This document shows positions 30,285-61,203 of a stretch of 64,000 nucleotides of DNA, piece by piece. This DNA comes from an uncultured Acidobacteriota bacterium (lineage in GTDB: Bacteria; Acidobacteriota; Thermoanaerobaculia; Gp7-AA8), in the NCBI GenBank assembly GCA_963822445.1, contig CAWGHO010000002.1, positions 2,304,001-2,368,000 of the forward strand, read 5' to 3'. The notes below the pieces were generated by a model. It was given only the letters and a program-made list of their open reading frames with translations. It was not told where the DNA came from and did not search any database. A program made the translations under genes and the position numbers. Within the stretch, counting starts at the first letter, position 1, and each line of letters opens with the position of its first letter.

Positions 30285-30450
30285 TTGCGGGGTTACGGGG
30301 TTTCGAGGTTGCGGGGTGGTTGTCGGGTGATCAGGTTGTCGGGTTGTCAGGTGGATGCCGCACCTGACAACCCGACAACCCGACAACCCGACAACCTGAC
30401 AACCTGGCAACCACCTCGAAACCCCGTAACCCCGAAACCTCGAAACCCCG
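30284..30450. repeat. Nested inverted 8-mer tandem-repeat element
   Basis: Outer GGGGTTAC/GTAACCCC-type arms enclose inner GGGTTGTC/GACAACCC-type arms. Confidence 0.9.
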
Positions 30451-30482: not shown

Positions 30483-30506
30483 CTCCACGTTCTGTAGGAG
30501 GTGCGG

Positions 30507-30899
30507 ATGCCGGCGTCACCCAAAATCAAGCTGACCCGTCTCGAGCTGGAGATCATGCAGTACCTCTGGAAGCTCGGCGAGGTCGCGGTGCGGGAGATCC
30601 AGGAAGCGATCCCCGCGTCGAAGCGTCCCGCGTACACGACCGTCCAGACCATCCTCACCAGGCTCGAGGAAAAGGGGGCCGTGCGCCGCACGCGGAAGAT
30701 CGGTAACGCCCATCTCTTCGAGGCCGTGCTGACGAAGAAGGGGATGTACGAGCGGCTCGTCGATGAGCTGCTCGATCTGTTCGGCGGCAGCCCCGAGCCG
30801 CTGGTCTCCCATCTCGTCGACTCGGGGAAGCTGACGCTCGAGGACCTCAAGCACGCGGAGGAGCGTCTCGCCTCCGCGCCGAAGAAGGGGACGCGATGA
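30507..30899 (+). CDS. BlaI/MecI/CopY family repressor
   Basis: LELEIMQYLW, AYTTVQTILTRLEEKG; AGGAG RBS. Confidence 0.93.
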   Translation: MPASPKIKLTRLELEIMQYLWKLGEVAVREIQEAIPASKRPAYTTVQTILTRLEEKGAVRRTRKIGNAHLFEAVLTKKGMYERLVDELLDLFGGSPEPLVSHLVDSGKLTLEDLKHAEERLASAPKKGTR

Positions 30900-32494
30900 A
30901 TTTCCTGCACGCCAATACGCCGTTCCTCGTCGTCTTCGCCGCCGCCGCCATCGCCGCTGTTGCTCTGGGATTGTTCGCCCAACGATTCCTGCGCGCGGCA
31001 TCGTCGCGACACGCGGTGCTGCTGGCGACTTTGCTTCTGCCGCCGGTGCTCTTCGCCGCGGCGGCACTCGGATTACGCGCGCCACTCGCGGCACAGCCGG
31101 CGGCTTCGAGCGCTGACGTTTCGATGTCGATCGTCTTTGCGCCTGCGACGAACACCACCGGCAATCTTGCGACGGTCCTCTTTTCGCTGTGGCTGATCGG
31201 CACGACGATCGCCCTCGCCCGGATCGCGCTCGAAGCCATCCGCTGGCGGCGCATCGCCGAGCGCGCGGAACCGATCACCGACTGGGATCTTCTGTCGCGG
31301 TTCGACTCGACCTGCGCTCTTGCGCGGTCGAATGAATGCGCGGAGCCGGCCGTCATCGGCATCGTCGATCCGCTGATCGTTCTGCCGGCGGCCTACGAGC
31401 TCGAGCCGGCGGAGCTCGACGCCGTGTTCGCGCACGAGCTCGCGCACGTAATGCGCCGCGACAACCTCATCGCGCTGACCGTGCAGATCGTCTGCGCGCT
31501 GTTCTGGTTCGACCCGCTGCATCGCATCGCCCGGCGCAAGCTGGTCGAGCTCCGCGAGCGCGTCTGCGACGAGCTCGTGCTCGATCGCGGTTGCGATGCC
31601 GAGGCTTACATCACGGCGCTCGCGCGCAGCACGCGGTCGACGCTCGCTCCCCAACACGCCGTGGCCTGCATGAGCCGCCTCAAGCTCGAGGAAAGGATGG
31701 AATCGATCATGACACACGAGAACCGCCGCCGTTTCCCTGTCTGGATCACCCGCGCATTCGTCACCGTCGCCGTGGCCGTAGCGGCCATCGGCTTTGCCAC
31801 GTTCTCGCCGGCACCGGTCGTCATCGCCGGCGAGGCCGGTCAGGCGCAATACGACTTCGACGTGCACGTCATGCGGCACGAGGACGGCCGCTTCACCCTC
31901 GTCGTTCGCATCGACACGCCGGAGGGCCCGATCAGCTCATTCGCCGTCGTTCGCTCCGCGCCCGACGCGCGCACGATCAGCACGACGCACAACGGCAAGA
32001 CCTATCGCGTCGACGTGCAGCTCGCCGCGGATGGATCGGCAACGGGCAAGTTCGACGTGACCGCGGGGGCGGCCACGCTCGCCAGCGCGGGCAAGCAGTT
32101 CGCCGCGCCGACGCGCACCTCGCCGATGCTCGCTCCGCCCGCGCCTCCGCAGCCCGGCTCGGAAGCTCTGGCGAAGAAGATCGCAGGGAACGACGCGGAA
32201 GCCCTGCTGAAGAAGATCGAAGTGAACATGACCCCGCCGAAGCCGGTGCACACCGTCGAGCCGATCTACCCCGGGGAAGCGAAAGACAACGGGATCTACG
32301 GGGTCGTCATCATCGAAGCTTCGATCAGCGAGACCGGCCTGGTCACCGACACGAAGGTCTTGAAAGGGCTGCCGTACGGATTGGACAAGGCCGCCGAGGA
32401 TGCGGTCCGTCAGTGGCGGTTCGAACCGGCCACCCGTGACGGGAAGCCGGTTCCGGTGACGTTCAATCTGACGGTGAACTTCAAACTCGATTGA
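30896..32494 (+). CDS. BlaR1-like M56 peptidase fused to TonB C-terminal domain
   Basis: HELAH, FWFDP, ERVCD; YPGEA..GVVII..AVRQWRFEP. Confidence 0.92.
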   Translation: MNFLHANTPFLVVFAAAAIAAVALGLFAQRFLRAASSRHAVLLATLLLPPVLFAAAALGLRAPLAAQPAASSADVSMSIVFAPATNTTGNLATVLFSLWLIGTTIALARIALEAIRWRRIAERAEPITDWDLLSRFDSTCALARSNECAEPAVIGIVDPLIVLPAAYELEPAELDAVFAHELAHVMRRDNLIALTVQIVCALFWFDPLHRIARRKLVELRERVCDELVLDRGCDAEAYITALARSTRSTLAPQHAVACMSRLKLEERMESIMTHENRRRFPVWITRAFVTVAVAVAAIGFATFSPAPVVIAGEAGQAQYDFDVHVMRHEDGRFTLVVRIDTPEGPISSFAVVRSAPDARTISTTHNGKTYRVDVQLAADGSATGKFDVTAGAATLASAGKQFAAPTRTSPMLAPPAPPQPGSEALAKKIAGNDAEALLKKIEVNMTPPKPVHTVEPIYPGEAKDNGIYGVVIIEASISETGLVTDTKVLKGLPYGLDKAAEDAVRQWRFEPATRDGKPVPVTFNLTVNFKLD

Positions 32495-32500
32495 CCCTGG

Positions 32501-32610
32501 AGCGGGCGGTGGGCAGCGGGCGGCGGGCGGCGGGCAGTAGCTAGAACCCCGAATGGTCTGCAGAGGAGCAACTTGCTTCCTGCCCGCTGCCCACTGCCCG
32601 CTGCCCACTA
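32501..32610. repeat. Inverted 7-mer tandem-repeat element (GGGCRGC / GCTGCCC)
   Basis: 5 units, ~40-nt spacer, 4 reverse-complement units between convergent genes. Confidence 0.88.
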
Positions 32611-32620
32611 CCACGCCCGT

Positions 32621-35116
32621 CTACTTCCGCTTCTTCGTCTTCCAGCGCTGACCACCGGCTTCTTCGGCCAGGGCGTCCCAGCGCGGATCGTCGTGCAGCG
32701 CTTCGAGGTCGTCGTCCTGATGCATGTGGTGGCTCAGCTCGAAGCCTTCGGCGCGGGCCTTCTCCAGCCACTGGAAGGCGGCGTCGCGGTTGCCCTGGAG
32801 GGCGTAGCCGCAGGCGATGTTGTAGGACGACGTGCCGACGCGGTAGCCGAGTGAGATGGCGCGGTTGAAGGCATCGTTGCCGGTCTGGAAGTCGCGGGCC
32901 TGCAGGGCGGTGAAGCCGAGGTTGAACCACGCGCGGCCGGACTGGGGGTACCTCATGGTCAGGGCGCGGTGATGCGCGGCAACCTTGCGCCACTGGCCGC
33001 GGTCGTCGTCGTCATCCCACTCGTCGTCGCAGCAGCCGCGCATCTCCAGGTCTTCCGCTTTCTGGCGGAGGGCGTCGAAGCCGTTCTGCTGGCGGAGCAG
33101 GGCGATGTCCGGATCGTTCAGGAGCTTCTCGTCGCTGGAGAAGCCGTTCTCGATCGACTTGTCGAGCCAGAGCATGCCGTTGCGGGCATCGCCCTTGAGC
33201 GAGTAGGCGCAGGCGATGTTGTACATCGACGTGCCGACCTTCTCGCCGCGCTTGATTGCGTTCTGGAAGGCGTTGATGCTCTCGTCGAACCGGCGAAGGC
33301 GGAGCAGGTCCAGGCCGACGTCGGCCCAGTCGTTGCTACCGTCGAAGATCTCGTCGAATCCCTTGCCGACGGCATCGCCGACGCGCTGGCTCACGCTGTC
33401 GCCGATGGCGTTGGCGATGACGTTGCCCACGCGGTTGCTCACGTCGTCGCCGCCCGTGACCTGGAGTTTCTTGTAGCGCTCCATGGTCTCGGTGACGCGC
33501 CGCGTGGCGACGTCGCTGCCGCCCTGCGCGACGAGGCGCTGGAAGCCGGCGTCGTTGCGGATCGGATCGAAGTCGGAATCGTCGGCGATGTGGTCGAAGT
33601 CATCCCAGCCGGCGTTGATGGCCTTGGCCAGCGATTCGGTGGCACGGCGGGCATCGCCGAGGAGCGCGTAGGAGCAGGCGGCGTTGTACAGCGCCGTTTC
33701 CACCTTGTAGCCCTCGTCGGCGGCGCGATGGAACGCGATCGCCGCATCGGCATACCGGTCGGAGCGATAGAGGTCATAAGCCCGCTCGTACCAGTCCTCG
33801 GCATCCTGCGGCGTGCGCAGGAACTTGTCCGCGCGCTTGTCGTACTTGCCGAGCTTCGCGAGGAGGTAGTCCTCGATGGCCTCGACGTCCGGGGTGACGG
33901 TCATCTGGGCGTCGGTGGTCTGCGACTCTTCGACTTTCGCCTTCGCGGCGACGTCCTGCGGCTTCGGCTGCTCCGCGGTCAGACGCAGCGCGGAGACGGG
34001 GATGATCACGGCGACGGCAAGGGCACACGCGACCGCGACACCGCGGCCGCTCAGAATGCGGCGGGCTACATCAGGCTGAAGAATCGACAAGAGACGTCCC
34101 TCCAATTGGGATTTACGCGACATCGCGAGCGTGACGGAGCGGAACGGATCGAAGGTGGGCATGGAGCGGGCGATCGCCAGCAGGTGATCCGCGTACTCGG
34201 ACGGCTTGGTGCCGCCGGCGAGGACGAGGTCATCGCACGCGCGCTCGCATTCGCTGCGGCCGGCGCGCTCGAGTGACCAGGCCAGCGGGTGATACCAGAA
34301 GATCGAGACGGCGATGCGGGTGACGATCAGGGAGATGCCGTCGAAACGCTTGAGATGCGCGAGCTCGTGCATGAGCACGACGCGCAGGCGCTCGGCCGGC
34401 CAGGTCACGACGTCCGCGGGCAGAAGCAGCACGGGCTTGAAGAAGCCCCACAGCACCGGGACGCTGATGCGGCCGGAGCGGAGCAGGCGGACGTCGCGGC
34501 TGAGGGCCAGCGCGTCGCGGGCGTGGTCCAGCTCGACCAGCGCCGCATCCTGAGTCAACTCCTCGGCATTCTTGGACACGTGCCACACGCCGGCCATGCC
34601 CAGGAGCATCTGGCCGAACATCAACAGGGTCATGCCGCCCAGGGCCAGGGCGATCATGCCCTTCCAGGTCGACTGGGTGATGTTCATCGCCCGGCTCATC
34701 GCCGTCAGCGGCTCGTCGGGAACGACGCCCGTGGCCTTGGCCAGGGAGATGGCGGTGCCGATCGAGGCGGACGCACCACCGGTCACGGTGACGGTCTGGC
34801 CGCCCTCTTCGGCGTCCGTGGCGCCCACGATCGACTTCGGACCGGTCTTGGTCTCGGTTGCCGCAGCAGCCGCAGCGGGCTTCTCGACGACGATGTGCCA
34901 CGCCGGCACGACCACGGTCGCGATCGGCATCGCTGCCACGGCGACGAGTGCGGCCGTCGCGACGATGTGCTTCGTCGCGGCGGATGCCCGCGGCATCGCC
35001 ATCAGCAGCACCCGCGCAATGGCCAGAATCAGCGTGGCCTTGAGGATGACCAGGAGCATGGTCTCCACGGCGCCGGCGGCCTGAAGTCTCGCAGCGAGCT
35101 CGAATAGGGTGGTCAT
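32621..35116 (-). CDS. BlaR1-like M56 peptidase with TPR sensor domains
   Basis: HELAH, FWYHP, ERACDD; three YNxACxY TPR-end repeats. Confidence 0.92.
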   Translation of the reverse strand: MTTLFELAARLQAAGAVETMLLVILKATLILAIARVLLMAMPRASAATKHIVATAALVAVAAMPIATVVVPAWHIVVEKPAAAAAATETKTGPKSIVGATDAEEGGQTVTVTGGASASIGTAISLAKATGVVPDEPLTAMSRAMNITQSTWKGMIALALGGMTLLMFGQMLLGMAGVWHVSKNAEELTQDAALVELDHARDALALSRDVRLLRSGRISVPVLWGFFKPVLLLPADVVTWPAERLRVVLMHELAHLKRFDGISLIVTRIAVSIFWYHPLAWSLERAGRSECERACDDLVLAGGTKPSEYADHLLAIARSMPTFDPFRSVTLAMSRKSQLEGRLLSILQPDVARRILSGRGVAVACALAVAVIIPVSALRLTAEQPKPQDVAAKAKVEESQTTDAQMTVTPDVEAIEDYLLAKLGKYDKRADKFLRTPQDAEDWYERAYDLYRSDRYADAAIAFHRAADEGYKVETALYNAACSYALLGDARRATESLAKAINAGWDDFDHIADDSDFDPIRNDAGFQRLVAQGGSDVATRRVTETMERYKKLQVTGGDDVSNRVGNVIANAIGDSVSQRVGDAVGKGFDEIFDGSNDWADVGLDLLRLRRFDESINAFQNAIKRGEKVGTSMYNIACAYSLKGDARNGMLWLDKSIENGFSSDEKLLNDPDIALLRQQNGFDALRQKAEDLEMRGCCDDEWDDDDDRGQWRKVAAHHRALTMRYPQSGRAWFNLGFTALQARDFQTGNDAFNRAISLGYRVGTSSYNIACGYALQGNRDAAFQWLEKARAEGFELSHHMHQDDDLEALHDDPRWDALAEEAGGQRWKTKKRK

Positions 35117-35117
35117 G

Positions 35118-35513
35118 TCAGCGTCCTTCCTTCTTGGCCTGCTCGATGAGTGAGGACAACCTGTCGAGCTCGTCGTCGGTGATGTTTGCTCTCTGCTTTT
35201 CGATGAGCGTGGCCACGACGTTGGCGGCGGAGCCGTCGAAGAACGTGGTCAGGAGCTGATCGAGCGCGGAGAGGCGCACTTTTTCCCTGTTGGTGGTGGG
35301 GAGGTACACGTAACGCGCGCCGTCGTGCTGATGTTTCAGGTGCCCCTTCTGCTCGAGGATGCGCAGCGTGGCCCGGACAGCGGAGTAGCTGGGCGGCTCG
35401 GCCATGGCCTCGAGGACTTCCGTGGCCGTGGCCTGCCCGCGGGCAAAGATGATGTTCATCATCTCCCGCTCGCGACGACTGAGGCTTTCTGTGGTCTTGG
35501 GCACGCTGGTCAC
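35118..35513 (-). CDS. BlaI/MecI/CopY family repressor
   Basis: LSRREREMM, SYSAVRATLRILEQKG, FFDGS. Confidence 0.93.
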   Translation of the reverse strand: MTSVPKTTESLSRREREMMNIIFARGQATATEVLEAMAEPPSYSAVRATLRILEQKGHLKHQHDGARYVYLPTTNREKVRLSALDQLLTTFFDGSAANVVATLIEKQRANITDDELDRLSSLIEQAKKEGR

Positions 35514-36701: not shown

Positions 36702-39546
36702 ATGAGATCAGTTACGAGGTTACGAGGTTACGGGGTTGCGGGGTTGTTCATCTGCTCGTTCGCTTTGAGTTCCACCTCGCAACCTCGTAACCCCGAAACC
36801 CCGCAACCCATCATCGAAAAACACATCCGCACCCTCTCCTCGGACGCGATGGAAGGGCGCGGCCTCAACACCAAGGGCCTTGCTTCCGCCGCTTCTACAT
36901 CGAAAACCAGCTCCGCGACGCGAAGCTCGAGCCGGCCTTCGGCAAGTCCTACCGCCAGAAGTTTCCGGTGAAGATCGGCGTGGCCCTCGGCGAGAAAAAC
37001 GCGATCGAAGGGTTGTCGAAGGACGACTGGACGCCGCTCGGATTCTCCAGCCCGGGCACGTTCTCCGGACCGATCGCATTCGTCGGCTACGGCATCGACG
37101 CGCCGCCGATGAACTACCGCGAGTACGAAGGCATCGATCTCAAAGGAAAGGTCGCGCTGATGCTGCGCTACGAGCCGCAGGAGCGCGATGAGAAGTCGGT
37201 GTTCGACGGTCGCCGTCCGAGCCGCTGGTCCGCGCTGCGCTACAAGGCGATGCAGGCGCGCGAGCGCGGCGCGGTTGCCGTGATCTTCGTGACCGGACCG
37301 CTGCAGGACGAAGCGAAGGACAAGATCCCCGCGCTCGCGAATGACGGCCCGGAGTCTCCGGCCGGTCTGCCTGTGATTCAGGTGAAGACGTCCGTCGCGC
37401 AGAAGTGGGTGGACATTGCCCAATTTCAAAAGGATGTCGACGCGGACATGAAGCCGCGCTCGCGCGTCCTCGATCGCACGCTCAGCGGAACGGTGGACGT
37501 GAAGGCCACCTACGCCGAAGCGGAGAACGTCGCCGGCATCATTCCCGGCCGCGGAAAGCTGAAGGACGAGATCGTCGTCATCGGCGCCCACTACGACCAC
37601 CTGGGCCATGGGCGGCCGCGGCTCGATGAAGCCGAACGACAACGCCATTCACAACGGTGCCGACGACAACGCGTCCGGAACCGCGGCGGTGCTCGTCGCG
37701 GCTCGCAGACTGGCTGACTTACTCAAAGGTGCCCAGGACCGCCGCACGATCCTCATCGCTCTCTTCTCCGCCGAAGAAACAGGTCTCGGCGGCTCGGCTT
37801 ACTTCGTCGGCAACTCGCCGGTACCTGTCCAGAAGGTCGTTGCCATGATCAATCTGGACATGGTCGGCGCGATGAAAGACGACAAGCTCATCGCCCTCGG
37901 CAGCGAATCAGCGCCGGAATGGAAGCCGTTGCTCGAGCGCGTGTCGACCGACCTGAAGATGACCATCGCCGCGAGCGGCGACGGATACGGCCCCTCCGAT
38001 CAGACCAGTTTTTACGCGAAGCAGATTCCGGTACTGCACTTCTTCACCGGCACACACGAGCGCTATCACACGCCCGACGACGACGCCGACGCGATCAACT
38101 TCGCCGGTGCCGAACGCGCCGCGGAAGTGACGACGCGCGTTGCTGCCGCACTGGCGAAAGGCGATGTGACGCCGGCGTACGCACGAGCGACGTCCGCCCC
38201 GGCCATGGAAGGCGACAGCCGCGGCTACGGCGCCTGGCTCGGCACGATTCCCGATTTCAGCGCGATGGAATCCGACGTCGGGCGGCGTGAAGCTGGCCGA
38301 CGTTCGCGCCGGCGGTCCGGCTGACAAAGCCGGCATCAAGGGCGGCGACGTGCTCGTGGAGATGGCGGGCACGCGCATCGAGAACCTGTACGACATGACG
38401 TTCGCGCTGCAGGATCACAAGCCGAACGAGACGATCGACGTGGTCGTGCTGCGCGACGGAAAGCGGATGACGCTGCGCGCGACGCTGGGATCGCGGGCAT
38501 CCGTTGCCGCGCCGACCGCGCCGCACGGCGCCGCGGCGGAGATGCAGATCAAAGCCGGCAAGCCGTTCGAGAAAACGGTCGACGGCGAGAAGCATCTGAA
38601 GGACATCCGCCAGCTGACGTTCGGCGGGGAGAATGCCGAGGCGTATTTCAGTCCGGATGGGAAGAAGCTGATCTACCAGTCGACCGCGGAGCGCGGCGGA
38701 TGCGATCAGCAGTACGTCATCGACCTGGTCAGCGGCGAGACGAAGATGGTCTCCAGCGGCAAGGGGCGGACGACCTGCGGTTACTTCTCCTGGCCGGTCG
38801 GCGATCGCATTCTTTACGCGTCGACCGAGGCTGCTGATTCGAGTTGTCCGCCGCCGCCGGATCGGGCCAAGGGCTACATCTGGGGCGTTTATCCGTCGTA
38901 CGACATCTACGTCGCGAAAGCGGACGGCTCGAGCCCGAAACGCATCACCACCACGGCGGGCTACGACGCCGAAGCGACCTGGTGTCACAAGGGCGGCAAG
39001 ATCATCTTCACCTCCGTGCGCGACGGCGATCTCGATCTGTACGAGATGGACGAGAACGGCGGGAACGTGAAAAAGCTGACGACGTCCGCGGGATACGACG
39101 GCGGCGCGTTCTACAACGGCGATTGCACGGAGATCGTGTGGCGCGCGTCGCGGTTCAGCGATCCGGCGCAGCTCGCCGATTACCGCTCGCTGCTCGCGGA
39201 AGGGTTCGTGCGGCCCTCGAAGATGGAGCTGTTCGTCGCCAAAGCGGATGGCTCGGGCGCGAAGCAGATCACTTCCAACGGTGCGGCGAACTTCTGTCCG
39301 TTCTTCACGCCGGACGGCAAGCGAATCATCTTCGCCTCGAACATGCTCGATCCGCGCGGCCGCGAGTTCGACATCTTCATCGTCAACAAAGACGGCAGCG
39401 GCACGCCCGAGCGGATCACCACCGCGGCGGCGTTCGACGGCTTCCCGATGTTCAGCCCCGATGGGAAGTATCTGGTGTGGGCGTCGAACCGTTCGAATCC
39501 CGAGGGGCGGGAGACGAATCTGTTCATCGCGAAGTGGGTGGAGTAG
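36702..39546 (+). CDS. M28 peptidase (PA insert) - PDZ - PD40/TolB fusion; 3 apparent frameshifts (~36895, ~37607, ~38281)
   Basis: LSSDAMEGRG, GAHYDHLG, GADDNASG, FSAEE, SDQ, YH; PDZ GPADKAG; FSPDG repeats across consecutive ORFs. Confidence 0.8.
36711..36809. repeat. Inverted 8-mer tandem-repeat element within 5' end of peptidase CDS
   Basis: GRGGTTAC-type arm and GTAACCYC-type arm flank the codons for LFICSFAL. Confidence 0.85.
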
Positions 39547-53628: not shown

Positions 53629-53660
53629 AAAAAAAGGCCGGCGTTTCCGCCGGCCTTTTT
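53629..53660. terminator. Bidirectional intrinsic terminator
   Basis: A-tract, GGCCGGCG stem, TTTC loop, CGCCGGCC, T-tract; just downstream of the pyrophosphatase stop. Confidence 0.85.
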
Positions 53661-53680: not shown

Positions 53681-56201
<2,521 letters not shown>

Positions 56202-56324
56202 TGATTCCTCCGTGTTGTGGATGCGATCGACCCGGGTCCGGGAGCCCGCAGGCAAGCGTTTCCCGTCAGGTGTGGGTCGTTAGGGCGCGCGGATTGTACA
56301 CGAGGAGCCTCCGCGAGGGTCACC

Positions 56325-56359: not shown

Positions 56360-56515
56360 CCCGGACCACTTCCGGAACGGTTTCCGCAGGTGCGGCTGGC
56401 CGTACGTACGTCGATCCGCCTGCTGCAGCGGGCTTGGGGGAAAGGAGGCAGGCTCGCCTTTACCCATCACGAAACGTCCGCATTTCGCGTTTTTTCGAAA
56501 GATCAGGAGAGCGTC

Positions 56516-57037
56516 ATGAAAACGACATGGAGAGTGCTCCTCGGAGCGCTCGCATTCGCAGCGTTCTTCGTTCCTACGGCCTCGGCGCAGATCGAGTGTT
56601 ATCAGTGCGATCCCTGGGGCCCGTGCTACGAGAGCTGTTGGTACTGTCAGACTCCCCATCCCGATTACTGTCCGCAGAACGACGTGGTCTATACGACGTG
56701 CGGCGACGCCACGGGGGCGTGCATGGAGGAGAACTGCACGCCGAACTGGCAGGAGACCGGCCGGGTCGCTGTCGGCACGTACGGGGAGGCGATCGATTAC
56801 TGGAGGTGTGCCTTCTTCGAGGACTGTGAATGCGAGCACCACACGGTTTATCGGGTCACCGAGGAAGACCAGAATCAATGCAACACCAGCTCGTACTACT
56901 GGGAGCGTGAGTTCTGCGACGACGTCCAGACCGGCGAGAAACACGGCAACGACCAGCCGGATTGCTGCGACGGCTACGGCCCCGGCGGAGGTCCTGACCC
57001 AACCTACACCTGTAACCACTGGCACAGCTGCTTCTGA
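56516..57037 (+). CDS. Secreted cysteine-rich protein (18 Cys)
   Basis: AGGAG RBS, signal peptide ending ASA|Q, acidic Trp/Tyr/Cys-rich mature region. Confidence 0.85.
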   Translation: MKTTWRVLLGALAFAAFFVPTASAQIECYQCDPWGPCYESCWYCQTPHPDYCPQNDVVYTTCGDATGACMEENCTPNWQETGRVAVGTYGEAIDYWRCAFFEDCECEHHTVYRVTEEDQNQCNTSSYYWEREFCDDVQTGEKHGNDQPDCCDGYGPGGGPDPTYTCNHWHSCF

Positions 57038-57042
57038 CCGGC

Positions 57043-57076
57043 GCTGCCGGGGCGCGGGCGACCGCGCTCCGGCAGC
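57043..57076 (+). other. Strong intergenic stem-loop without U-tract
   Basis: GCTGCCGGGGCGCGG-GCGA-CCGCGCTCCGGCAGC. Confidence 0.65.
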
Positions 57077-57106
57077 ACCTTCAACGCTTGACGTGAGGAG
57101 ACACGA

Positions 57107-58129
57107 ATGAAAATCCGAGTGCTGATTTTGACGGCGATGGTTCTCGTCCTGGCCGTGACGGCCGTGGCGGGTGACAAGGGAGTGGCGCGGATCAACGGCG
57201 TGGTGGTCACGGAAGCAGAGCTCGATCGGGCCATCGGTTCGCGACTGATGCGCGTCCGTTCCGAGGAGTACCAGATGAAGGTGGCCATCCTCGACGAGCT
57301 GGTGGCCGACAAGCTCATCGCCGCCGAGGCCGCGCGGCGCGGCGTGACCGTCGACGAACTGCTGAAGGTCGAGGTCGACGCGAAGACGAAGGTCCCGGCG
57401 GACGTCGACCTCGAGACGATGTACGACGGGATGCGCGAGCGCTTCGGGAACATGCCGAAGGAGGCCGCGATCGCCGAGATGCGGACCAAGCTGCAGGCCC
57501 GCAAGGCCCACGAGCGGAAAGAAGCGTTCGTGAAGGAGTTGCGCGCGAAGTCTGGAGTGGAGGTGCTGATCCAGCCGCCGCGCGTGGACCTGCGCGCCGA
57601 TGGACCGTCGCGAGGCAATCCGGATGCGCCGGTCACGATCATCGGCTTCTCGGACTTCGAGTGCCAGTTCTGCGGCCGGGCCGCGGAAACGCTCCGCACG
57701 ATCGAGCAGCGTTATGGCGACAGCGTACGCATCGTCCATCGCGACTATCCGCTGATGTCGCACAAAGGTGCTGCGAAGGCAGCCGAGGCCGCGCACTGCG
57801 CCTCCGAGCAGGGCAAGTTCTGGGAGATGCACGACAAGCTGTTCGCCAAGGGCGGCTCGATCGCCCGGCCGGATCTGACCCGGTTCGCGCGCGAGCTGCA
57901 GCTCGAGACCGAGCCGTTCGAGACCTGCGTCGACTCCGGGAAGTACCAGGCCACCTGGCGCCGGTCGTTCGAAGAAGGCGGCGCGATCGGCGTCCGCAGC
58001 ACGCCGACGTTTTTCATCAACGGCCGGCTGGTTTCCGGCGCCGCGTCGATCGAGTCCTTCGCGAAGCTGATCGACGAAGAGCTGGCGCTCACGCCGAAAC
58101 GGGAGAGCGTCAAGGCCGCGGCAAAATGA
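57107..58129 (+). CDS. DsbA-family thioredoxin with SurA-like N-terminal domain
   Basis: VARINGVVVT, FSDFECQFC, FWEMHD, GVRSTPTFFING. Confidence 0.92.
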   Translation: MKIRVLILTAMVLVLAVTAVAGDKGVARINGVVVTEAELDRAIGSRLMRVRSEEYQMKVAILDELVADKLIAAEAARRGVTVDELLKVEVDAKTKVPADVDLETMYDGMRERFGNMPKEAAIAEMRTKLQARKAHERKEAFVKELRAKSGVEVLIQPPRVDLRADGPSRGNPDAPVTIIGFSDFECQFCGRAAETLRTIEQRYGDSVRIVHRDYPLMSHKGAAKAAEAAHCASEQGKFWEMHDKLFAKGGSIARPDLTRFARELQLETEPFETCVDSGKYQATWRRSFEEGGAIGVRSTPTFFINGRLVSGAASIESFAKLIDEELALTPKRESVKAAAK

Positions 58130-58165
58130 AGCGAGGCAGGAGCGCCGGCGTTCTCGCTGGCGCTC

Positions 58166-59359
58166 CTACAGCGCGATTTTGAGCATCACCGGATCGCTCA
58201 GTTTCGAAAGCGGCCAGATCTTTCCGCTCTCGTCGAAGGAGCGCAGTCCGGGATTGGCGATGAAGAAGTAACTGCCGCCGACGATGGCGCCGGTGGTGGG
58301 AAGCTCGAAGAGGCGATTTTTCGACTCGAGGACTTCCATGCGATTGGTGTCGAGATGCACGCGGATCAGGCGCGGGTTGCCGATGCTGTTCTGGATGCCG
58401 ATCAGCGTCCCGCGATAAAAATCGAGACCGTCGATGCCGCCGAGGAGCGTGTTCGGCACTTCGATCTTCGCGCGGGTTTTGTCGGCAAGGGTGAAGCGAT
58501 GCAGGCCGCGGAAATCGGCGACGTACAGATAGGTGCCGTCATTGTCGACGGCATGGGTGATGCCGTTCGGGAAGCCGAAACCGTCCGCGTAGGTCTCGAA
58601 CTTGTCGGCGCCGGGCGCGAGGCGGACGACCGTGTGGCCGCCCATGTCCGTGGCGAAGATCGTTCCGTCCTCGAGCAGGGTGAGGTCGTTCAATCGGGCC
58701 GGGGCGGGATCGATTTTGCGGAGCAGTTTCCCGGTGCCGAGGGCGTACGCGGCGAGCATCGATGAGTCCTGCCCCTTCACAGAACCGCGCATCTCGGGAG
58801 TGGTCGAGCTGATGACCCAGAGGATGCGATTCTCGTGATCGATCTTCATCCCCAGACCGCCGAGCATTCCGTCCTGACCTTCCTTCACGAAGTCAGTGGC
58901 GCGGCCGGAGGGATCGACGCGGATCACTTTCCGCCGATAGATGCTGCTCACGTAGAACGTGTCTTCGATCTTGTCGTAGGCGATGCCCTCGGGGACGAGG
59001 TCGCGCTGGCCGGCGATGGTGAAGGCGACTTCGGCGTTGTTGACGCGGGGCTCCCGGGCATCGAGCTTCGCGACGATGTTGCGAAACGTTGAACCTCGCG
59101 AGCTCCTGAAAGCGATCGGACTGGCGCCGTGTTGCCAACCGAGCTCGTCAAGGCGGGTGAGCCAGCGGACGACCTGGTCCGTCTCGCCGGTTTTGTCATG
59201 GTAGGTTGCGAGAACGTAGATCCACGGCATGTTCGTGGGTTGCTGCGCGATCGCATCCGTCAGTTGTTTGATCGCGCCGCGGGTTTGCTCGTCGACCACG
59301 ATCGGTTTCGTCGAACAGGCGAGAACGACGGCGACGAAGAGCAGCGCGATCCGTTTCAT
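58166..59359 (-). CDS. Lipoprotein with SMP-30/gluconolactonase-like beta-propeller
   Basis: Lipobox VLAC, PEGIAYD, LNDL, PNGI, IDGL. Confidence 0.8.
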   Translation of the reverse strand: MKRIALLFVAVVLACSTKPIVVDEQTRGAIKQLTDAIAQQPTNMPWIYVLATYHDKTGETDQVVRWLTRLDELGWQHGASPIAFRSSRGSTFRNIVAKLDAREPRVNNAEVAFTIAGQRDLVPEGIAYDKIEDTFYVSSIYRRKVIRVDPSGRATDFVKEGQDGMLGGLGMKIDHENRILWVISSTTPEMRGSVKGQDSSMLAAYALGTGKLLRKIDPAPARLNDLTLLEDGTIFATDMGGHTVVRLAPGADKFETYADGFGFPNGITHAVDNDGTYLYVADFRGLHRFTLADKTRAKIEVPNTLLGGIDGLDFYRGTLIGIQNSIGNPRLIRVHLDTNRMEVLESKNRLFELPTTGAIVGGSYFFIANPGLRSFDESGKIWPLSKLSDPVMLKIAL

Positions 59360-61135: not shown

Positions 61136-61203
61136 TTACTGCCTCCTAAAGATGAAAAAGACGGCTGTTGCCAGCCGTCTTCAGGTTCACGAGTGATGCC
61201 GGG

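Follow-up and report, generated by a model that had tools for sequence, protein, structure and literature searches.

Bacterial proteins with one Cys per eight residues, all of them paired, are uncommon, and how such a Cys-dense chain settles on one correct pattern among millions of pairings is a practical problem still to be solved. It is posed by two neighbouring genes in an uncultured member of the Acidobacteriota, of which we analysed one stretch of 64 kb (hereafter the window). The upstream gene encodes a Cys-rich secreted protein, P0001, and the downstream gene a chaperone-DsbA fusion, P0002 (Table 1). An earlier note on this DNA had read the pair as a two-gene system that exports a disulfide-rich effector together with a dedicated folding catalyst. 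On balance, we lean towards the view that the locus is a cassette of a Thermoanaerobaculia type, in which a disulfide-locked client is folded by the chaperone-DsbA fusion through the mechanism proposed below. Such a cassette would be a natural and compact test case, offering a client with an apparently new fold, a catalyst equipped with a chaperone domain of its own, and several diverged copies of both for swaps. If the P0002 fusion were specific and efficient, it could aid the production of disulfide-rich proteins in bacteria. Moreover, the cassette provides a function-linked handle on a class of Acidobacteria that is known almost only from metagenomes.

Table 1. Features of the P0001-P0002 locus, with positions in the window
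Feature	Codons or residues	Position	Strand	Remark
Shine-Dalgarno-like GGAAAGGAGG in the 5′ leader		56439-56448	+	aligns with the SD of the relatives' two-codon mini-ORF
RBS of the P0001 gene, AGGAG		56505-56509	+	6 nt before ATG; read from sequence
Cys-rich secreted protein gene, P0001		56516-57037	+	173 aa (open reading frame)
P0001 signal peptide	codons 1-24	56516-56587	+	A-x-A/Q site, residues 22-25
Intercistronic GC-rich stem-loop		57043-57076	+	15 pairs including one G-U, loop of 4
RBS of the P0002 gene, GAGGAG		57095-57100	+	6 nt before ATG
Chaperone-DsbA fusion gene, P0002		57107-58129	+	340 aa, exported
P0002 signal	codons 1-22		+	N-terminal hydrophobic stretch
P0002 SurA-N-like helical domain	residues ~24-160	57176-57586	+	SurA_N_3 match, model
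P0002 DsbA/Thioredoxin_4 domain	residues 166-324	57602-58078	+	Pfam
P0002 CQFC	residues 186-189	57662-57673	+	active-site motif
P0002 Thr299-Pro300		58001-58006	+	loop opposite CxxC
Terminator-like hairpin, 13 pairs		58138-58167	+	between the dsbA gene and a convergent gene ending at 58166

The description of P0001 in the earlier note was confirmed in every part, namely the open reading frame, the signal peptide, the 18 Cys residues and the lack of a CxxCH haem-binding motif. In addition, no cytochrome family was matched in Pfam or NCBIfam. The signal is of the Sec type and has no twin-arginine motif. The mature part of 149 residues has a pI of 4.10, with 27 Asp and Glu residues against five Lys and Arg residues, and it contains six Trp and 12 Tyr. 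Its Cys residues comprise the 16 of the family core plus C98 and C104, and two CxxC motifs are present at residues 28-31 and 41-44. Across the 58 further proteins predicted in the window, Cys accounts for 0.73% of the residues (132/17,995), and the binomial probability of finding at least 18 Cys in 149 residues is 1e-16. Cys density alone is nevertheless no proof of a gene, because off-frame stretches of the GC-rich DNA of the window reach up to 11.5% Cys. We consider the P0001 gene real because it combines a GC3 of 0.79 with a signal peptide and membership in a conserved family.

The homologue search suggested by the earlier note, with attention to Cys spacing, uncovered a genuine, narrow family with an invariant Cys framework. 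The family amounts to about 36-48 sequence clusters: 36 representatives were found at E <= 1e-3 among 1.84 billion, a figure that includes the spurious P0037, and 48 clusters by a profile search limited to 100 words. P0037 (1609 aa) matched in 14 stretches but, as a repeat protein lacking the Cys framework, was dropped from the family. In a genome collection, family loci were located with a degenerate pattern for the block C-x-H-H-x-V-x-x-V-T-x-x-D-x-x-x-C. This pattern matched 29 loci, 23 of which carry the Cys-rich family, all in records of Thermoanaerobaculia, Thermoanaerobaculaceae or Thermoanaerobaculum (19 contigs, 17 MAGs). The remaining six are chance matches; at loci L013 and L001 the family profile matched nothing beyond the pattern (E 2e-4 and 1e-3), and these two were treated as chance. 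A pattern derived from an 11-sequence family alignment matched 30 stretches, none of which was confirmed.

No known family or fold accounted for P0001. At E <= 1 it matched no family in Pfam or NCBIfam, and among 51 members there were only sporadic weak Pfam matches, to BTRD1 in three and to a yeast killer toxin in one (E 0.0016). The AlphaFold model is confident (pLDDT 89.5), and Foldseek found no match to it in PDB or BFVD at E <= 1e-3. The best hit of a profile search against PDB, at E 0.12, was not significant, and ESM Atlas gave no usable match for P0001 or for the member P0183 (the Atlas's own model has a pLDDT of 0.35). PADLOC and PHROGs yielded no matches for the Cys-rich protein. Likenesses to thaumatin, secreted phospholipase A2, GH45/DPBB and cystatin were not borne out by Pfam, and the listed matches to cystatin-like and endoglucanase V-like PDB chains were not significant. 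Full-text searches of the literature, including passages of PMC12428200 and PMC6067686, returned no paper on the family. P0001 is an exported, acidic, beta-rich protein of ~150 residues whose family is undescribed and whose fold is apparently new. The suggestion in the earlier note that it is a toxin, inhibitor, adhesin or metal binder found no support in these matches.

Further information came from the Cys residues across the family. The mature part has an even number of Cys in 85/85 full-length members, with 16 in 55 members, 18 in 26, 20 in three and 22 in one. Extra Cys occur two at a time in neighbouring loop positions (98+104, 98+100, 96+102, 145+146, 34+75, and 156 plus an insert), and two members have lost both C37 and C69. 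In five other members the total remains even because the loss of a core Cys goes along with an odd number of extra ones. Across the family, Cys are thus gained or lost in pairs, or a single Cys shifts its position. As judged from these even counts and paired changes, the family probably has eight core disulfides and P0001 one more. This argues for a fully disulfide-bonded protein with nine bonds in the window copy, in agreement with the up to nine disulfides that had been proposed. In metallothioneins and thiolate storage proteins, the Cys residues stay reduced as metal ligands, and their count need not be even or change pairwise. The even, pairwise behaviour therefore favours disulfides over thiolates of the metallothionein type as the probable state in this family. 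The Cys framework, including C28-x2-C31 and C41-x2-C44, is invariant, and the loops vary in length and sequence. Conserved positions of the family are also found at His108, His109, His170, Asp118, Asp136, Asp139, Asn120 and Tyr89; at eight polar or aromatic positions other than Cys, conservation is 87-100%. P0001 itself has Thr at position 139, where the family has 94% Asp. This conserved His/Asp/Tyr set hints at a candidate ligand or metal site.

By family profiles and motifs, P0002 can be assigned to the DsbA-type thiol:disulfide oxidoreductases, as the earlier note had it from the CQFC motif and the Thr-Pro loop. It matched Thioredoxin_4 (PF13462) with E 1.9e-31 and 109.9 bits (cut-off 23.2) over profile positions 5-165 of 165, and DSBA (PF01323) with E 2.4e-20 and 73.6 bits (cut-off 25.6) over positions 1-190 of 191. 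Both profiles were also matched by 43/43 relatives. In these 43 relatives, both CxxC Cys and S298-T299-P300 are invariant, and a second invariant Cys pair is formed by C231 and C274. The active site reads CQFC in P0002 and CPFC in most relatives. Among solved structures, the DsbA domain of P0002 is nearest to 7unn and 4pwo (E ~2e-27) and to BdbD. Every PDB match starts at query position 122 or beyond.

The SurA-like N-terminus proposed earlier is probable. P0002 itself matched SurA_N_3 (PF13624) at residues 6-84 with E 3.7e-5 and 24.1 bits, which falls short of the gathering score of 27.2, and 43/43 relatives matched at E <= 1e-3, the best at 2.8e-9. Modelled alone, the N-domain reached a pLDDT of 90.2, and its top Foldseek match was SurA (9hg9_F; probability 0.96, TMq 0.49, E 0.14). 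PrsA, trigger factor and PEB4/Cj1289 came next. The top 25 include several chains of SurA, PrsA, trigger factor and PEB4, none of them at E <= 1e-3, and all matches of the N-domain lay above E 0.1. Pfam gave no rotamase or parvulin family for P0002 at E <= 1, and the protein is therefore not SurA proper. A description of a SurA-N/DsbA fusion was not found in the full-text literature search, which included passages of PMC12428200. A complex prediction for P0002 (23-340) and P0001 (25-173), both with alignments, scored 0.00 and gave no verdict either way.

The association of the two genes extends well beyond the window. On 13/19 family-bearing contigs, a full-length P0002 orthologue lies directly downstream of the family gene on the same strand; counted by gene, 14/23 intact family genes have such an orthologue next downstream and 18/23 are clustered with one. 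The complete orthologues gave phmmer E-values of 1e-105 to 1e-117, and the gap from family gene to dsbA measures 14-77 nt. With fam for the family gene, the arrangements were fam-dsbA, fam-dsbA-fam-dsbA, fam-dsbA-fam and fam-fam-fam-dsbA. Since 38 other neighbouring ORFs were scanned and no family recurred beside the pair, fam-dsbA is the sole conserved neighbourhood at these loci. Five contigs, all of one subclade with the C-terminus ...CNHQH[SGN]C, have no DsbA gene within the stretch of up to 2 kb covered on each side, and the sixth without a full-length downstream orthologue retains only a 67-aa remnant. The loci were found via the Cys-rich gene, so the sample consists of family-bearing loci, and DsbA orthologues without a Cys-rich gene lie outside it. 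Shared longest-contig sizes (134151, 2710, 46028, 83387 and 4351) suggest that five metagenomic pairs of Cys-rich and DsbA matches are also located on the same contig.

The two genes also diverged and multiplied together. Trees of the family and dsbA genes have five two-member clades in common, and pairwise identities in the family correlated with those in dsbA (Mantel r = 0.82; 0/5000 permutations reached r), an agreement that is partly expected from shared species history. Three MAGs contain two cassettes each, every cassette with its own DsbA copy. In two of them, both cassettes are mutually nearest relatives for both genes, with comparable dS values (0.57/0.39 and 0.59/0.32), and purifying selection acts on both duplicated DsbA copies (dN/dS 0.29 and 0.22). 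Judging from these relationships, the fam-dsbA pair was copied as a whole in these two MAGs. Thus, homologues do keep the DsbA neighbour, and the two-gene system of the earlier note stands as a same-strand pair that is conserved, co-diverging and co-duplicated. The word 'dedicated' is supported only in part: the conserved, co-duplicated pair speaks for it, whereas specificity does not follow, because the fusion type is common in metagenomes, and one subclade of five contigs has no DsbA neighbour.

Conceivably, the spacer between the genes sets their relative expression. The GC-rich stem-loop in this spacer begins 6 nt after the P0001 stop codon and has a dG of -44 to -46 kcal/mol (z -5.5 to -5.7), with 0/200 shuffles folding as well. 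An equivalent GC hairpin with a stem of 10-15 bp is present in 14/15 fam-to-dsbA spacers, with stem sequences that differ between loci; in 13/15 spacers, at most 5/200 shuffles folded as well as the spacer itself. The distance from the hairpin to the start codon of dsbA is only ~19-30 nt, too short for a promoter to fit in between. When the window hairpin was tested as an intrinsic terminator, the stem was present, no T run followed and the consensus scan gave no call; classic terminators with T runs do occur elsewhere in the window. The same type of hairpin is also found after family genes with no dsbA behind them, and for this reason it may be a plain terminator of the Cys-rich gene, albeit one lacking the T run. 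Intercistronic stem-loops are known to set unequal operon expression in the Rhodobacter puf operon and in E. coli malEFG. Like these, the fam-dsbA hairpin is stable and directly follows the upstream gene, whose product is presumably the more abundant one.

What was observed here, that is, the genes and their family, pairing, co-duplication and pairwise Cys behaviour, the hairpin and the domain make-up of P0002, would fit together as follows. Both genes would be co-transcribed from the P0001 promoter, and the GC hairpin without a U tract would stop or protect part of the transcripts, giving much message for the substrate and less for the catalyst. In the periplasm, the chaperone domain of P0002 would hold the unfolded, Cys-dense P0001 chain while its CQFC site would introduce the disulfides. 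The folded P0001 would then be a very stable extracytoplasmic protein with fast-evolving loops, in which His108, His109, His170, Asp118, Asp136, (Asp139), Asn120 and Tyr89 may make up a binding site, or a catalytic one, for a small ligand or metal.

DsbA-type genes linked to particular secreted clients are known from uropathogenic E. coli (DsbL/DsbI) and from the Salmonella virulence plasmid (SrgA), where, as may hold for P0002, the enzyme is not the sole general one. The AssT gene lies beside dsbLI and the PefA gene beside srgA. Conserved adjacency, as in a client-plus-DsbA pair like DsbL/AssT, was found here on the 13/19 contigs mentioned above. P0002 differs from DsbL and SrgA in that its oxidase part is joined to a chaperone domain of the SurA-N type, the putative client belongs to an undescribed family with 16-22 Cys, and the pair was apparently duplicated as a unit. 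Unlike DsbL/DsbI, there is no partner of the DsbI/DsbB type near P0002 in the 64-kb window. With oxidases of the DsbA/MdbA/BdbD type (7unn, 4pwo, 3eu3), P0002 shares a full-length domain, the CxxC motif, the Thr-Pro loop and an export signal, but it adds an N-terminal helical, chaperone-like domain of 140 residues that the matched PDB chains do not cover. This domain resembles the chaperones SurA, PrsA and PEB4 in the SurA_N_3 matches of the relatives and, weakly, in structure; in contrast to them, P0002 has no parvulin PPIase domain, and a DsbA domain takes its place.

Several other explanations have to be weighed against this reading. P0002 could be the housekeeping periplasmic oxidase and chaperone of the lineage, serving many clients, and P0001 may have settled upstream of it or become co-regulated as its heaviest client. 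We regard this as a possibility of some weight, though not the probable one. Since the fusion type is far from rare, P0002 may indeed be a general periplasmic oxidase: its architecture gave 2932 matches at E <= 1e-10 among 8000 candidates scored, against 48 clusters of the Cys-rich family, which is a rough comparison given the 100-word limit of the family search. The best 120 of these matches all scored at least 355 bits and were 47-94% identical across most of the sequence, or 39-50% identical across the DsbA half. No DsbB, VKOR, DsbD or other DsbA was found among the predicted proteins of the window, one subclade of the family lacks the DsbA neighbour, and a chaperone domain of the SurA type points to a broad range of clients. 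However, a general enzyme fits poorly with the three MAGs in which each of two cassettes has its own DsbA, under purifying selection in both that were tested, and with an adjacency that persists where both genes have diverged to about 45-50% identity and all other neighbours have changed. Alternatively, in a refinement of the preferred reading that differs in the end function, P0001 might be a secreted bacteriocin-like toxin or an inhibitor of proteases or other enzymes, with the DsbA fusion as its maturation factor. We think this rather unlikely. It would account for the tandem arrays of two or three diverged family copies, the variable loops on an invariant Cys framework, the narrow, lineage-specific distribution, and a dN/dS of 0.41-0.55, which exceeded that of dsbA (0.15-0.40) in 5/5 comparisons. 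Nevertheless, gene-wide dN/dS stays below 1, no conserved immunity, export or processing gene accompanies the family, PADLOC and PHROGs were silent, and the eight positions conserved at 87-100% are a better fit for a fixed ligand than for a co-evolving target. The one weak killer toxin match and a Kazal-domain protein gene that adjoins the family gene in convergent orientation at locus L006 are single, weak observations.

It is improbable, in our estimation, that some of the P0001 Cys serve as metal ligands, in a Zn(Cys)4 knuckle or as thiolates for copper, and that P0002 is ScsC-like or a reductase or isomerase. The two invariant CxxC motifs and three invariant or near-invariant His would suit such a role, and four Cys on one metal also give an even count. 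The PDB relatives of P0002 include a 'Suppression of copper sensitivity protein', a 'Copper resistance protein' and a 'Metal resistance protein' (E 7e-15 to 8e-16), and the best PDB profile match of P0001 was the zinc-finger chain 2cr8 (residues 25-60), which, at E 0.12, is not a match. Against this, extra Cys that come as close pairs and the joint loss of C37 and C69 are the behaviour of disulfide partners, the signal is of the Sec type without a twin-arginine motif, and the neighbour is an oxidase-type CxxC protein whose best DsbA-domain matches are oxidases of the DsbA/MdbA/BdbD type. Least credible of all is the idea that P0001 is the working partner of P0002, binding metal at its His/Asp/Tyr site and exchanging oxidising equivalents with the DsbA domain, so that both would make up a soluble, membrane-independent module that replaces DsbB/VKOR and is controlled by a mini-ORF in most relatives. 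A cassette in which P0002 folds a disulfide-locked client thus remains our preferred reading.

Concerning the transcription signals, a promoter scan of the locus gave no sigma-70-like site, and the single terminator-like site from the scan lies inside the P0002 gene and is at chance level. Rfam searches of the locus, of 11 related loci and of the whole window returned nothing usable. The region downstream of P0002 that contains the terminator-like hairpin (58127-58200) folded with -41.7 kcal/mol in RNAfold. In the leader of the window the mini-ORF is not intact, whereas a mini-ORF consisting of an SD, a start codon, one further codon and a stop codon is present in 14/23 related leaders.

The Cys-rich gene of the window (fam, encoding P0001) and the DsbA-fusion gene behind it (dsbA, encoding P0002) form a real, conserved cassette. 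P0001 starts with a typical Sec signal ending in Ala-Ser-Ala, followed by Gln25. The mature protein of 149 residues contains 18 Cys (12%), 6 Trp and 12 Tyr, has 27 acidic versus 5 basic residues (pI 4.1) and carries two CxxC motifs, at 28-31 and 41-44; a search of the mature part for CxxCH found none. The mean Cys content of the window's annotated proteins is 0.73%. Since off-frame stretches of the window's 64%-GC DNA attain up to 11.5% Cys, Cys density alone is insufficient as proof of a gene; the Cys-rich frame has a GC3 of 0.79, and relatives exist.

Features of the fam-dsbA cassette, its arrangements and nearby terminators
Feature	Position or occurrence	Strand	Remarks
Ribosome-binding site AGGAG of Cys-rich gene	6 nt upstream of ORF		read from sequence
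Cys-rich ORF (fam)	56516-57037	+	173 codons
Intercistronic stem-loop	57043-57076	+	15 pairs (one G-U), 4-nt loop; six bases past fam stop codon
DsbA-fusion gene (dsbA)	57107-58129	+	340 residues, own signal sequence; 69 bases downstream of fam
Classic A/T-tract terminators elsewhere in the window	53631-53660; 61158-61181		
Arrangement fam-dsbA	9 contigs		
Arrangement fam-dsbA-fam-dsbA	1 contig		
Arrangement fam-dsbA-fam	2 contigs		
Arrangement fam-fam-fam-dsbA	1 contig		

Among 5.8 billion proteins, a word-indexed search returned 10 relatives of P0001, and an exhaustive HMMER search of 1.84 billion representatives returned 36 at E ≤ 1e-3, including one spurious repeat protein. A 51-member family profile, searched with a limit of 100 words, matched 48 clusters. 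In their sources, family members are named solely 'hypothetical protein'. P0001 itself matched no family at E ≤ 1 in Pfam (2025 copy) or NCBIfam release 20, and a scan of the 51 aligned members gave only sporadic weak matches (BTRD1 in 3, yeast killer toxin in 1). The AlphaFold2 model of P0001, built from 34 sequences, is confident (mean pLDDT 89.5, pTM 0.69) and beta-rich, with three strands of ~15 residues each. Foldseek found no match to it at E ≤ 1e-3 in PDB and BFVD, and the query-normalised TM-score was at most 0.28 among the matches listed; a PDB profile search reached a best E of 0.12, and the ESM Atlas offered no usable match. Homologue search and structure prediction, both suggested in the earlier note, yielded a real family with 16 conserved Cys columns and a model with no counterpart in these structure libraries. 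The Cys-rich proteins are a small, undescribed family, and the predicted fold would be new as far as these libraries reach; neither is described in Pfam 2025, NCBIfam release 20, PDB or the full-text literature searched.

P0002 matched Thioredoxin_4 (E 1.9e-31) and DSBA (E 2.4e-20) at residues 166-324, covering both profiles whole, with the active-site CQFC at 186-189. Its residues 6-84 matched SurA_N_3 at E 3.7e-5, just under the Pfam cut-off; in NCBIfam only a thioredoxin-like lipoprotein family matched, below threshold. Thioredoxin_4, DSBA and SurA_N_3 were each found in 43 of 43 aligned relatives (E ≤ 1e-3), in which the active site reads C-[PQNT]-F-C, most commonly CPFC, and neither Ser-Thr-Pro nor a second Cys pair (231/274) varies. 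The nearest solved domains were 7unn and 4pwo (E about 2e-27), 3gyk, BdbD and several ScsC-type chains; none of the matching PDB chains covered the N-terminal 120 residues. When modelled alone, residues 24-160 gave an elongated helical domain behind a short beta-hairpin (pLDDT 90.2), with SurA (9hg9_F) as the best PDB neighbour (probability 0.96, TMq 0.49, E 0.14), followed by PrsA, trigger factor and the SurA-like PEB4/Cj1289, none at E ≤ 1e-3. P0002 has no parvulin domain. The earlier note had described both proteins correctly throughout, including the secreted DsbA-type protein with CQFC; its SurA-like N-terminus holds by sequence at the family level, with weak structural support.

Automatically chosen peptide patterns recovered nothing from the genome collection, and loci were retrieved with a degenerate pattern for the block C-x-H-H-x-V-x-x-V-T-x-x-D-x-x-x-C. 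The family was present in 23 of the 29 loci returned (profile E 1e-20 to 1e-57), distributed over 19 contigs from 17 MAGs whose records all bear the title Thermoanaerobaculia, Thermoanaerobaculaceae or Thermoanaerobaculum. The nearest of these loci shared 51% and 54% identity with the window's two proteins, and the window most likely belongs to that class too. The other six were chance matches in Planctomycetota, Acetobacteraceae, Luminiphilus, Geobacter, Mycobacterium and Algoriphagus. The earlier note had asked whether homologues keep the DsbA neighbour, and on most contigs they do: on 13 of the 19, the next gene after fam on that strand codes for a full-length P0002 orthologue (phmmer E 1e-105 to 1e-117; one truncated by the contig end), with a gap of 14-77 nt. 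Counted per gene, an orthologue directly follows 14 of 23 intact family genes, and 18 of 23 are clustered with one. A lone family gene is found on five contigs, in each case from one and the same subclade with the C-terminal end ...CNHQH[SGN]C, and the sixth dsbA-less contig has just a 67-residue family remnant. This remnant (L016:1732-1935, minus strand; profile positions 53-122, E 7e-20; record titled Thermoanaerobaculum sp.) adjoins a TIR-domain gene and appears to be a decayed copy. In a single case, a 129-aa Kazal-type serine protease inhibitor ORF (L006:1536-1925, minus strand; E 1.5e-9) is convergent to a lone family gene. Among 38 further neighbouring ORFs scanned, which include methyltransferases, transglycosylases, an ion channel, NamZ, GNAT enzymes and pseudopilins, no family recurred beside the pair. 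The window cassette itself has an H+-pyrophosphatase gene in divergent orientation on one side and a convergent SGL-type beta-propeller gene on the other, in an ordinary stretch of chromosome.

Maximum-likelihood trees of the 13 complete pairs had five two-member clades common to both genes, and pairwise identities of fam and dsbA were correlated (r = 0.82, reached by 0 of 5000 permutations). Because species history, common to both genes, adds to this agreement, the paralogues are the telling cases. In SMAG_U4372 (tandem cassettes) and MAG149 (two contigs), the genome's own two cassettes are mutually closest in both genes, with identities of 63-66% in the family gene and 84-87% in dsbA. Within these duplicated cassettes, fam and dsbA have diverged to a comparable extent at synonymous sites, and purifying selection acts on each dsbA copy (dN/dS 0.22-0.29). 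The two cassettes of SMAG_U12094 are old paralogues with separate places in both trees. The Cys-rich gene evolved faster in five of five comparisons (dN/dS 0.41-0.55 versus 0.15-0.40 for dsbA). Judged from these sequence comparisons, the two genes are passed on and duplicated together.

For a Cys census, 96 sequences were aligned and the 85 full-length members counted, excluding 11 fragments. Each of 16 Cys columns is occupied in at least 83 of the 85, and the mature parts total 16 (55 members), 18 (26), 20 (3) or 22 Cys (1), never an odd number. Extra Cys occur as pairs, either separated by a few residues within one loop or at sites that probably lie near each other in space: 98+104 in the window's clade, and elsewhere 98+100, 96+102, 145+146, 34+75, and 156 with an insert after residue 160. 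The only joint core loss, of C37 and C69, is in two members which gained another pair; in five others a core loss is offset by an odd number of extras, so that the total remains even. This behaviour argues for fully oxidised proteins, with eight core disulfides and nine in the window's P0001. Four invariant Cys on one metal would have the same even parity and retain some likelihood; the pairwise gains, however, argue against a thiolate-type metal protein. Among 79 sequences filtered below 80% identity, Gly87, Tyr89, His108, His109, Val111, Val114, Thr115, Asp118, Asn120, Asp136, position 139 (Asp in 94% of members, Thr in the window's P0001) and His170 are 87-100% conserved. Loops 91-105, 123-133, 140-149 and 152-165 are variable, in length as well as in sequence. 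Such a fixed polar His/Asp/Asn/Tyr set would fit a site for catalysis or for binding a metal or small ligand better than a co-evolving protein interface.

The earlier note had proposed a two-gene system with a dedicated foldase. A conserved, co-inherited cassette bears this out in outline; 'dedicated' is not established, as the fusion type is plentiful, and the same holds for the note's reading of the Cys-rich protein as an effector, which stays a proposal. P0002-like architectures gave 2932 matches at E ≤ 1e-10 among 8000 candidates scored; the best 120 of these all reached at least 355 bits, and many of them are named just 'thioredoxin domain-containing protein [Thermoanaerobaculia bacterium]'. 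By contrast, the Cys-rich family amounts to those 48 clusters of the word-limited search, and the loci, being sampled via the Cys-rich gene, cover only fam-bearing dsbA orthologues. These points favour a housekeeping enzyme, which we nevertheless consider rather unlikely in view of the conserved adjacency and joint inheritance, and chiefly of the two DsbA copies kept in two-cassette genomes. That P0002 is a specific partner of the Cys-rich protein we hold tentatively, with a confidence just short of an even chance; under either reading, it very probably oxidises P0001. The closest known systems are accessory DsbA paralogues tied to particular clients, DsbL/DsbI and SrgA (PMC6067686). As far as can be told, the cassette works likewise, but here the oxidase is a chaperone fusion, the client differs in nature and cysteine load, and no membrane re-oxidant is linked.

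The window's intercistronic hairpin folds at -44 to -46 kcal/mol (z -5.5 to -5.7), equalled by 0 of 200 shuffles. A GC stem of 10-15 bp, varying in sequence by locus, is present in 14 of 15 fam-to-dsbA spacers (the window and 14 loci), the exception being the 14-nt spacer of L014; in 13 of the 15, at most 5 of 200 shuffles fold equally well. No T run follows the hairpin, and dsbA starts ~19-30 nt past it, preceded by a GGAG-type ribosome site. We tentatively read the hairpin as an attenuator or 3′-end protector, which would result in unequal amounts of fam and dsbA message. Since a similar hairpin also follows most family genes without a downstream dsbA, a plain terminator is the simpler alternative. 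The window's longest perfect hairpin, with a 20-bp stem and 7-nt loop (30334-30380), is separated by 50 nt from the stop codon of the preceding TetR-family gene and is followed by a BlaI/BlaR1-like pair.

In the leaders of 14 of 23 family genes, a strong Shine-Dalgarno sequence is followed after 5-8 nt by a start (ATG 11, TTG 2, GTG 1), exactly one sense codon and a stop (TGA 12, TAG 2), 52-92 nt upstream of the gene (L002, L005, L007-L011, L019-L021, L024, L027, L029). Resampled controls gave a mean of 0.41 per 23 regions and a maximum of 3 in 500. This element, without an Rfam match, appears to be a conserved two-codon mini-ORF; a preprint (bioRxiv 10.1101/520783) mentions start-stop-like elements in bacteria. 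It is absent from the window, which has only an SD-like remnant (56439-56448), from L014, L003, one L024 copy and the five lone-subclade genes. In L003:1875-2492 and L024:1026-1643 (both minus strand), the upstream SD and ATG, elsewhere the mini-ORF opener, are in frame with the family gene, giving a possible 46-residue extension ahead of the signal peptide.

Elsewhere in the window, the H+-translocating pyrophosphatase gene (53681-56255, minus strand) is split across two frames near 54715, which match the H_PPase profile at 1-378 and 378-644; the frameshift is either real or an assembly error. A PA-domain ORF (36968-37717) overlaps a Peptidase_M28 ORF (37608-38324) in a different frame (36968-38324, plus strand), possibly a second frameshift, within one aminopeptidase gene. 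Finally, 30501-35513 holds two pairs of a BlaI-like repressor and a BlaR1-like M56 sensor (30501-32494, plus strand; 32621-35513, minus strand), in which one sensor carries a fused TonB C-terminal domain, the other fused TPR repeats.
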